Positions 13,245-14,968 are shown, numbered from the stretch's first letter. The stretch: 64,000 nt of DNA from a phage (GCA_023732985.1 GCA_023732985.1_3946.1), one strand, 5' to 3'. The notes: generated by a model not told the origin, from the letters alone. Program-made: numbers and translations.

Positions 13245-13270
13245 AGTCTCATTTTAATGTAGCTGAGACT
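13245..13270. other. hairpin with conserved loop TTTTAATGTAGC, stem AGTCTCA/TGAGACT
   Basis: Identical copy at 14785-14810; variant at 13373-13396 has a different stem (ATCGGA/TCCGAT) and a near-identical loop (1 nt change), i.e. compensatory stem changes. Confidence 0.6.
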
Positions 13271-13372
13271 AACTACCCATACCGAACAACACCGCGCTAT
13301 ACCTTAGCCCACCTCACCGAGCCTCGCCCCACATCACTTAAAAACCCTCTTAGAAGACTCTTAAGTGATGTA

Positions 13373-13396
13373 ATCGGATTTTTATGTAGCTCCGAT
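13373..13396. other. hairpin with conserved loop TTTTTATGTAGC, stem ATCGGA/TCCGAT
   Basis: Covaries with hairpins at 13245 and 14785; all followed by TAACTACCC. Confidence 0.6.
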
Positions 13397-13496
13397 TAAC
13401 TACCCATACCAAGCCTAACCTGACCGCACCAAACCTTACAACACCACACCATACCTGACCATACCAAACCTCATTAAAAGACCCTGTTTAAAGACC

Positions 13497-13523
13497 TTTT
13501 AAAAAGGAGCCTCCGAAGAGGCT
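13497..13523 (-). terminator. intrinsic terminator candidate (minus strand)
   Basis: AGCCTC-CGAA-GAGGCT hairpin followed on minus strand by CCTTTTT, just downstream of stop of 13535..13975. Confidence 0.5.
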
Positions 13524-13534
13524 ACCTAGTCAAC

Positions 13535-13975
13535 TTAGAAAGGTTTTCTACGTTGCTTGTTAATGTTAGCTTTCATAGCAGCTAAATGGTTTTGCTGTTC
13601 AATCAGTCGTGAACGTTCTTGATGGCTAAGTGCCATAGTGTTCACATTCTCAATCGCTTGAGTGGCTTGCTTTAAAGCCCGACCAATCTTACCAGACATT
13701 TTACGTTTTGCAATAGTTGCTTGATGTTTAGGTTCAACCACACGATAACCAACACCCATTGAAGCAACCAGATAAATCTTCTCTTCTTTAAGAAGCTTTT
13801 CAATAAACTTCTCAAGTCGGTTTAGACGTGTAAGTGCATAAGCCTTCATTTCATCTTCGTACTTAACAATGTCGCCTTGATAAGTTGGCTTCACAATACC
13901 TAAGAAGGTATCCATCTCAGAATGTGATACAGTGTCACCGTAACTAAACTTTGCTGCTAATGCTTTTGTATTCAT
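13535..13975 (-). CDS. hypothetical protein
   Basis: 146 aa ORF flanked by structured noncoding regions. Confidence 0.4.
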   Translation of the reverse strand: MNTKALAAKFSYGDTVSHSEMDTFLGIVKPTYQGDIVKYEDEMKAYALTRLNRLEKFIEKLLKEEKIYLVASMGVGYRVVEPKHQATIAKRKMSGKIGRALKQATQAIENVNTMALSHQERSRLIEQQNHLAAMKANINKQRRKPF

Positions 13976-13977
13976 AA

Positions 13978-14580
13978 TTAAACGTTACCTTCTGAAATAA
14001 CTTCTACAGAAAAACGACCAAAGCGTGGACGCCAATCACCTACACCGCAAAGGTTACCAGCATTTTCCAGAACCATCAAGAGTTCTTCTTTGGTGATTTG
14101 CTCTTCATCGAACATCAAACCGAACTCTACAGACCAGTCACGGAAGATTGGGCGGTAGCTCATAACTCGTGCTGTACCAATCTTAACAGACTTAGCATAG
14201 ATAAAGTCTGGATTCTTAGCGAGTTCTTGTGGGTTTGCTGGGCAGTTCTTGATAGTCATTGGGAAGACTACATCTGTCAGCATAATGGCTCGGTCAATTA
14301 CCTTACCAAGTTTGTTGAGTTTTGCACCAGACTTGATACAAGCCTCAATCATCTCACCGTTCATAACAAAACCTAGTTGCTCATCGTAGTAACAAGAAGT
14401 TACCAGTTGGCTTTCTGCTAAGAGCGCATAGTCTTCGTCAGTCTTTTTACGTTTACTGGACAGAGACTTGTGATATTTTGTCAGAGGGTTTAATGGGTCT
14501 GACAACGTATCAGCGTGGCTCAGGAAAGGACGAGTACCAGTGATTTTGATATTTAACAGTTTCATAGCATTTAGCTCCAC
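13978..14580 (-). CDS. hypothetical protein
   Basis: 200 aa ORF; possible alternative start at Met6. Confidence 0.4.
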
Positions 14581-14968
14581 ACTTTAGTTTATTGTTAAGT
14601 TGTTTGTAAAGAACCCTCAACAGAAGACTCTTTAGAAACTTGGTAGATTTTTAACGTGGCTACTACCATCCACCCATACCAGACCTAACCACACCTCACC
14701 CCACCTGACCCATACCTCACATTACCATACCAAACCAGACCCCACCTCATTAAAAGACCCTCTTAAAGACCTTTTAAAAAGGTAAGTCTCATTTTAATGT
14801 AGCTGAGACTAACTACCCGCACCTTACCAAACCACACCATACACCACCGAACCGAACCAAACACTACCTTACCGGACATCACTTAAAACCCTTTTAAAAG
14901 ACTCTTAAGTGATGCTGGTGAGTACCCGTTGGTTTATGATGCTCAGTATACTCACCAAATTTTCTATG
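14581..14968. repeat. 388 bp ORF-free structured region, paralogous to 13025-13534
   Basis: Same module set: ACC-rich tract, AAAGACCCTCTTAAAGACCTTTTAAAAAGG, hairpin 14785-14810, CATCACTTAA..TTAAGTGATG inverted repeat 14878-14914. Confidence 0.7.
14785..14810. other. hairpin with conserved loop (third copy)
   Basis: AGTCTCATTTTAATGTAGCTGAGACT, identical to 13245-13270. Confidence 0.6.

Follow-up and report, generated by a model that had tools for sequence, protein, structure and literature searches.

Hairpins with a common loop in Escherichia phage JLBYU32 are very probably the 3′ tails of type II VIPR guide RNAs

Three hairpins with a common loop lie at 13245-13270, 13373-13396, and 14785-14810 in a 64,000-nucleotide (nt) stretch of phage DNA (GCA_023732985.1; this whole stretch is called the window below), which corresponds at 100% identity to Escherichia phage JLBYU32, a Felixounavirus. 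We conclude with high confidence that these hairpins are the conserved 3′ tails of vrRNAs, which serve as guide RNAs in a type II VIPR (Viral Interference Programmable Repeat) system of this phage. VIPR was described in SUSP1 in two 2026 preprints (bioRxiv 10.64898/2026.04.26.720920; bioRxiv 10.64898/2026.04.26.720927). According to the preprint text, Vipr is a minimal RAMP homolog, and each vrRNA contains 9-16 YNNGG repeats, in which GGY is conserved and NN is hypervariable, and then an invariable 3′ tail. For the SUSP1 clade, which is defined there by >90% identity to SUSP1 Vipr, the tail is described as folding into a hairpin plus a pseudoknot, and the pseudoknot of SUSP1 vrRNA1 was resolved by cryo-electron microscopy. 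The same text reports, from small-RNA sequencing and pull-down experiments, that the SUSP1 vrRNAs are roughly 100-nt RNAs that co-purify with Vipr, and that the guides of this clade target mostly a satellite phage, with an ungapped match to at least 80% of the NN bases as the target criterion. Its authors propose that VIPR is older than CRISPR. The element analysed here is already described, as the pseudoknotted 3′ tail of vrRNAs in type II VIPR, and because the biology was worked out in a system that is 98% identical, our finding adds no new kind of system. The present analysis contributes a precise annotation of the five guides of this phage and independent support from covariation for the pseudoknot, with a base-pair series that fixes the RNA strand, as well as evidence for many Felix O1-like phages with guides but without the protein and a description of conserved elements between guides.

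Results

The hairpins belong to a family of five in two non-coding regions

Re-reading of the sequence confirmed hairpins at all three sites. At 13245-13270, the arms AGTCTCA and TGAGACT enclose TTTTAATGTAGC, and the copy at 14785-14810 is identical. At 13373-13396, the arms ATCGGA and TCCGAT enclose TTTTTATGTAGC, and the stem extends to 8 bp (TAATCGGA/TCCGATTA; 13371-13398). As stated in the original prediction, which was made from the sequence of the window, all three hairpins share the 12-nt loop TTTT(A/T)ATGTAGC and are followed by the common 3′ flank (T)AACTACCC. The prediction erred in calling the difference between the stems a complete replacement, as only 3 of 7 pairs differ when the stems are placed in register, with every change compensated. 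The three copies are all real, but the two AGTCTCA copies are not independent and belong to a longer direct repeat on either side of a two-gene cassette. The family is also larger than the three members first recognized, and a hairpin scan detected two overlooked members with 16-nt loops, TGGCAG/CTGCCA at 13116-13143 and TGGTAG/CTACCA at 14641-14668. A similar-looking hairpin at 12060-12077 lies inside an open reading frame and is apparently coincidental. Three further features had been missed, namely the pentamer tract before each hairpin, the pseudoknot between loop and flank, and the identity of the intervening genes as those of Vipr and Vap1.

The hairpins sit in two long non-coding regions, 13025-13534 and 14566-14968, on either side of the cassette, and the genes nearby are all encoded on the minus strand. 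By BLAST of the window against itself, the repeated modules are confined to these two regions. In phage wV8, this cassette is annotated with a direct repeat, DR_4, on each side.

The tails are covarying pseudoknots on the minus strand

The conserved flank is more than a flank, in that its CTAC is complementary to GTAG in the loop, giving a pseudoknot. On the minus strand, the 4 bases immediately 5′ of each hairpin are complementary to 4 loop bases, which produces an H-type pseudoknot whose helix covaries by hairpin class (GUAG/CUAC, AAGG/CCUU, and GUGG/CCAC). Each tail is ~33 nt long and combines a hairpin of 6-8 bp with this 4-bp helix between flank and loop. A loop of 1-2 nt crosses the long helix and an A-rich loop of 7-9 nt crosses the short helix, a geometry that is feasible for a minus-strand RNA, but not for a plus-strand RNA.

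Covariation was evaluated in 99 tail instances from 29 loci, representing 18 distinct sequences that were aligned by hand to fit the structure. Standard pairs occur in all 196 pair cells of the hairpin and pseudoknot, double-sided changes occur in 9 of the 12 pairs, and the covariation score is 0.785 compared to 0.243 in shuffles (0 of 500 reach 0.785) and ≤0.12 when the partners are slid, where these figures overstate the number of independent events, because the alignment is structure-fitted and the tails comprise only four paralogous classes (A1, A2, B1, and B2). Stem complementarity was kept throughout the additional copies, in agreement with the original interpretation of a selected secondary structure. 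One hairpin pair is G-C in the window, G·U in most relatives, and A-U in one relative. This series pairs throughout only on the minus strand, with the common form becoming an A·C mismatch on the plus strand, which fixes the strand of the RNA. The appearance of G·U pairs only in the minus-strand reading also bears out the earlier suggestion of a structured RNA on the coding minus strand. Rfam 15 gave no family match in the whole window, and the scan of 12950-15050 gave only sub-threshold chance hits.

Guide tracts adjoin homologs of Vipr and Vap1

Each hairpin is preceded on the minus strand by a tract of 11-15 YNNGG pentamers, which is ACC-rich on the plus strand. The unit composition in 67 unique tracts is Y 0.99, N, N, G 0.82, and G 0.96. 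Tract lengths vary in 5-nt steps, and the repeat number per tract ranges from 9 to 17 across the tokenised loci. The NN dinucleotides of guide a read CC AA AG TT TC TC GG AT GT TT AA GC, and guide e is common to several related phages, with small changes.

The 195-amino acid protein of the cassette matched PDB 36pp_D ("SUSP1 Vipr protein") with E = 8.5e-129 in a PDB sequence search and is identical to SUSP1 Vipr at 192 of 195 positions (98%). The residues identified as GGY contacts in the cryo-electron microscopy preprint (H17, E71, M72, R138, C173, D177, W178, and R179) are all present in the Vipr of the window. The 146-amino acid open reading frame directly downstream of vipr is identical at 145 of 146 positions (99%) to the SUSP1 gene called vap1. 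Pfam and NCBIfam searches of the cassette proteins returned nothing informative, and PHROGs returned only "unknown function". The locus has the composition of a type II VIPR system, with a vipr gene, an adjoining vap gene, YNNGG guides, pseudoknot tails, and vrRNAs in long intergenic regions that flank vipr on the same strand.

We scanned IMG/VR for seven consecutive GGTNN units, such that contigs were retrieved by the pentamer pattern alone. The matches listed included, besides plain microsatellites, many unrelated contigs with heterogeneous (GGTNN)n tracts. Among these same matches, BLASTP against the contig open reading frames placed homologs of the 195-amino acid protein directly beside the tracts in about 30 unrelated contigs, which implies that the protein and the tracts are a conserved pair. 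One unrelated 21-kb contig (L154) contains at 2200-3300 a non-coding array of >1 kb with about 13 (GGTNN)n tracts that are separated by a conserved, A/T-rich spacer, AAGGAATGGTTTAATGAATTTAAT. This array is located immediately downstream of a remote Vipr homolog (22% identity) and probably represents a further VIPR type whose inter-guide element is different.

Organization of the locus

Minus-strand reading of several relatives and tokenising of 28 loci revealed a common grammar, which starts with a near-consensus sigma-70 promoter (P1) and continues with an A/U-rich element (T2, or T1 later), a pentamer tract, a hairpin, and the next element. The minus-strand order in the window is P1, two vrRNAs, vipr, vap1, a terminator, and three vrRNAs (Table 1). 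P1 is the predicted promoter of the upstream vrRNAs and of vipr-vap1, and by analogy with SUSP1, expression of vrRNAs of roughly 100 nt is predicted from this near-consensus promoter. The T2 leader is probably removed from the mature RNA. The class B2 tail of vrRNA b is identical to the tail of SUSP1 vrRNA1.

Table 1. Features of the VIPR locus in the window, listed in minus-strand order
Feature	Coordinates	Strand	Description
Promoter P1	14945..14972	-	TTGACA, 16-nt spacer, TATACT; 11/12 consensus matches; conserved in all related loci
T2 leader element	14877..14914	-	CATCACTTAA[..]TTAAGTGATG; precedes guide a
vrRNA a guide	14817..14876	-	12 YNNGG units
vrRNA a 3′ tail, class A1	14785..14816	-	GUAG-UU-AGUCUCA-G-CUAC-AUUAAAA-UGAGACU; contains hairpin 14785-14810
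T1 inter-guide element	14750..14782	-	CCTTTTTAAAAGGTCTTTAAGAGGGTCTTTTAA
vrRNA b guide	14674..14749	-	15 YNNGG units, one extra G after unit 8
vrRNA b 3′ tail, class B2	14641..14673	-	GUGG-A-UGGUAG-UAG-CCAC-GUUAAAAAU-CUACCA
T0 element	14604..14635	-	T-like motif overlapping a weak promoter-like site just upstream of vipr
vipr gene	13978..14565	-	195 amino acids, RAMP homolog
vap1 accessory gene	13535..13975	-	146 amino acids
Intrinsic terminator	13508..13523	-	Hairpin AGCCUC-UUCG-GAGGCU, then CCUUUUU; terminator scan
T1 element before guide c	13474..13507	-	
vrRNA c guide	13404..13473	-	14 YNNGG units
vrRNA c 3′ tail, class A2	13371..13403	-	GUAG-U-UAAUCGGA-G-CUAC-AUAAAAA-UCCGAUUA; contains hairpin 13373-13396
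T2 inter-guide element	13332..13370	-	
vrRNA d guide	13277..13331	-	11 YNNGG units
vrRNA d 3′ tail, class A1	13245..13276	-	Contains hairpin 13245-13270
T1 inter-guide element	13209..13242	-	
vrRNA e guide	13149..13208	-	12 YNNGG units
vrRNA e 3′ tail, class B1	13116..13148	-	AAGG-A-UGGCAG-UAG-CCUU-AUAAAAAAU-CUGCCA
Promoter P2 for next gene	13069..13097	-	TTGACA, 17-nt spacer, TATTTT

Promoter P2 lies inside an A/T-rich inverted repeat (13050-13115), AAATAAGCTATAA[21 nt incl. -35]TTATAGCTTATTT, which is followed by a T-run. This inverted repeat is terminator-like, overlaps the promoter, and comes directly after the last vrRNA tail. Two database entries, GU169904.1 (Staphylococcus phage SA1) and MG065664.1 (Campylobacter phage A132), carry Felixounavirus sequence with 95-100% identity to the locus and are likely chimeric or mislabelled.

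Elsewhere in the window, about 1.7 kb of non-coding sequence at 57800-59480 is dense in degenerate motifs (TTGTTAAGA, CTGTTAAGA, TTGTTAGAAGG, and GCTATAAAG), including tandem repeats of 10-24 nt, and could be a regulatory, origin, or terminal-repeat region. In the segment 51050-51200, the motif AAAAATCATTTT(C/A)(A/G)AA(A/T)CGTGCAG occurs twice, at 51050 and at about 51097, with a C-rich run, CCCCTCTCCCCCTCTTACTCCCCCTCTCCCC, about 25 nt beyond the second copy.

Inter-guide elements and guides without a cassette

The T1, T2, and T0 elements between tails and guides are A/U-rich and highly conserved. An AAR(R)GTCT box occurs 12-16 nt after every tail, and an RGGGTYTTTWA box occurs just before each guide. 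We considered T1 and T2 as sigma-70 promoters for the individual guides and rejected this idea, as there is no conserved TAnnnT-type -10 at the right distance. A promoter scan called only P1, P2, and a weak site in T0. The 10-bp arms of T2 vary on one side only, without compensation, and do not suggest a covarying hairpin. The T elements are not discussed in the VIPR preprint text, and the main text of the VIPR discovery preprint does not mention RNases, RNA maturation, or transcription starts.

By BLAST, the vrRNA region is present in 231 phage records, and Vipr of at least 90% identity in only 118. Subtraction of these two BLAST counts gives about 113 of 231 related genomes with the vrRNA region but without Vipr of at least 90% identity. 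Direct checks of FO1a, UAB_Phi87, and JohannRWettstein showed one or two vrRNAs between P1 and P2 and no cassette. In each orphan vrRNA gene, a T2 element is followed by a YNNGG tract and then by a pseudoknot tail (the FO1a copy is L126 2501-2782), and further Felix O1-type loci have one or two vrRNA genes without vipr or vap1 (L132, L134, L020, L075, and L109). The YNNGG pattern is found in 76% of orphan units compared to 80% of other units, where the orphans contribute only seven tracts. These repeats are not described in the genome papers of Felix O1 and UAB_Phi87. A functional role for either component is conceivable, if rather doubtful: the inter-guide elements might be vrRNA-end or array-control signals, or the orphan vrRNAs might act as guide-only loci served by Vipr from a co-infecting relative. 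Alternatively, the orphan guides may be deletion remnants.

Discussion

Proposed function of the tails

VIPR is a newly reported form of RNA-guided DNA recognition with a gapped code, in which two bases are read per pentamer. That its structured guide-RNA tail was detectable from raw sequence alone implies that the signal is real. The mechanism was shown in SUSP1 in the preprint text, and for this phage we reason by analogy. One Vipr protomer would occupy each pentamer and sequester GGY, and the exposed NN dinucleotides would base-pair with target DNA while skipping each third base of it. Engagement of DNA would occur first at the protomers beside the pseudoknot and then towards the 5′ end, and target binding would repress transcription of the target. 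The earlier option of a protein recognition hairpin fits this mechanism to the extent that the tail RNA would be part of a protein complex, as carried over from the co-purification of the SUSP1 RNAs with Vipr. We suggest in addition that the pseudoknot may set the register and the end of the Vipr filament and may shield the roughly 100-nt RNA from 3′ exonucleases. The A/U-rich T1 and T2 elements between guides may be trimmed off, because P1 is about 60 nt upstream of guide a and mature vrRNAs are about 100 nt.

Several points weigh against the assignment to type II VIPR. RNA folding and covariation statistics, which had been proposed together as a check, gave different outcomes, in that covariation was strong but thermodynamic folding alone was unimpressive, with modest energies and z-scores of -0.7 to -2.4. 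Likewise, the loop motif by itself is weak evidence, with 3 matches compared to 1.6 expected when one mismatch is allowed, and a first IMG/VR scan with a loop-plus-flank pattern gave mostly chance matches. Since the loop motif is not significant and folding is modest, the case rests on the comparative data. Guide b has a 1-nt register break at about 14709 (TATGG-G-TCAGG), which also occurs in IMG/VR locus L114, and this guide may be split or disabled by the break and hence defective. Expression, processing, and Vipr binding of the vrRNAs of this phage are carried over from SUSP1, the class A2 tail, with its ATCGGA stem, has no counterpart in SUSP1 and only a putative role with Vipr, and the sources on VIPR are preprints.

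A further point of the same kind is that exact-match searches of IMG/VR and GTDB representatives found no natural target for the guides. The exact 10-unit NNx patterns of guides a, c, and e had no match in IMG/VR, and guide e had one match among GTDB representatives, in a Bacteroidia genome, which is about the chance number. A BLAST search for satellites that share the tails, made with the vrRNA array in 5,426 complete E. coli genomes, gave no match. Against the window itself, no full-length guide scored higher than shuffled sequence, and the 12/14 score of one 7-unit fragment of guide b equals that of the best shuffle. This result for the window agrees with the finding of no self-targeting reported in the preprint text.

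Other explanations of the hairpins

The hairpins could instead be intrinsic terminators or attenuators that punctuate the leader and trailer of the cassette, which we regard as very unlikely. The original prediction correctly noted a T-run on the minus strand after both AGTCTCA copies (TTACCTTTTT) and none after the ATCGGA copy. In line with a terminator, both A1 hairpins are followed on the minus strand by UUACCUUUUU, and the bona fide terminator after vap1 has the same CCUUUUUAAAAGG. Because the A1 tail shares this U-run with a bona fide terminator, it could also help to define a 3′ end. The original caution that the element is not simply a terminator nevertheless holds, as the U-run is missing from the A2 and B tails (3 of the 5), the tails have A/U-rich stems and loops of 12-16 nt, and a terminator scan calls only 13508-13523 and none of the tails. 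Moreover, the loop bases are conserved and pair with the flank on the 5′ side, a feature not required of a terminator, and the SUSP1 RNAs are reported in the preprints to co-purify with Vipr.

Even less probable is that the modules are chiefly recombination cassettes like T4-type PeSL elements, with repeats that shuffle genes and covariation that is incidental. The vipr-vap1 pair is flanked by direct repeats (DR_4 in wV8) and is present in some relatives and absent from others, and regions contain 1 to 5 modules. Recombination leaves unexplained, however, the strict retention of GGY with free NN, the compensatory changes in the stems, and the linkage to Vipr across unrelated phages, and shuffling is more plausibly a side effect of the repeats.

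We give virtually no credence to a replication origin or primase site, where transcription of a G-rich non-template strand from a strong promoter yields an R-loop or G-quadruplex that primes DNA synthesis, and the hairpins are protein landing sites: P1 is upstream of a G-rich, C-poor transcript and the locus is among DNA-metabolism genes, but the origin or primase-loading role that had been suggested is unsupported by any initiator, iteron, or DnaA-box evidence, the pentamer tracts accompany a RAMP-family protein in unrelated phages, G·U tolerance indicates RNA structure, and Felix O1 itself lacks the cassette together with most of the modules, which implies that the locus is dispensable. Both G-quadruplex or R-loop replication priming and a role of ACC-rich plus-strand RNA as a Rho loading site were dropped once the link to Vipr was found.

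Comparison with known systems

As a type II VIPR system, the locus can be compared directly with that of SUSP1 (PDB 36pp). Both have the order of promoter, vrRNA(s), vipr, vap1, terminator, and vrRNA array, both have YNNGG guide units, and tails A1, B1, and B2 of the window are sequence-identical to SUSP1 tails. Our parsing of the SUSP1 locus gave one vrRNA upstream and three downstream, which matches the small-RNA sequencing published in the preprints. SUSP1 has four vrRNAs, compared to five here (two upstream and three downstream). The NN sequences differ in all guides, SUSP1 lacks a tail of the A2 class (AUCGGA stem), and the 1-nt register break is a feature of guide b of the window.

VIPR resembles CRISPR crRNAs, with their handle or hairpin and Cas6, Cas5, and Cas7, in that a variable guide carries a conserved structured cap. 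In both systems, a polymer of RAMP-fold proteins lies along the guide, and a thumb flips out bases at a fixed period. By contrast, the VIPR guide is noncontiguous, with 2 of 5 RNA bases read and a 1-nt skip in the DNA, its cap is a 3′ pseudoknot instead of a Cas6 hairpin, and VIPR has no CRISPR array or adaptation genes. Unlike in CRISPR, a PAM was not detected for the VIPR system of SUSP1, according to the preprint text.

The ToxI RNAs of type III antitoxin systems are likewise tandem non-coding repeats of variable copy number that are tied to phage conflict, and each unit has a pseudoknot that is bound in a protein-RNA assembly. However, ToxI repeats are 36 nt long, are cut by their own toxin, and inhibit that toxin, with no guide role and no pentamer code. 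This likeness is a resemblance only, and we do not propose membership.

Finally, the TRAP sites of the Bacillus trp leader, (G/U)AG triplets with 2-3-nt spacers, provide an analogy only. They share with the vrRNA guides a 5-nt period and the binding of one subunit per repeat. A TRAP-like ring on GGU repeats was considered and dropped, because the repeat number, at 9 to 17, is too variable for a closed ring of fixed size. The TRAP 11-mer closes into a ring and reads the triplets, whereas Vipr forms an open helical filament in which the triplets are hidden and the spacers are exposed.

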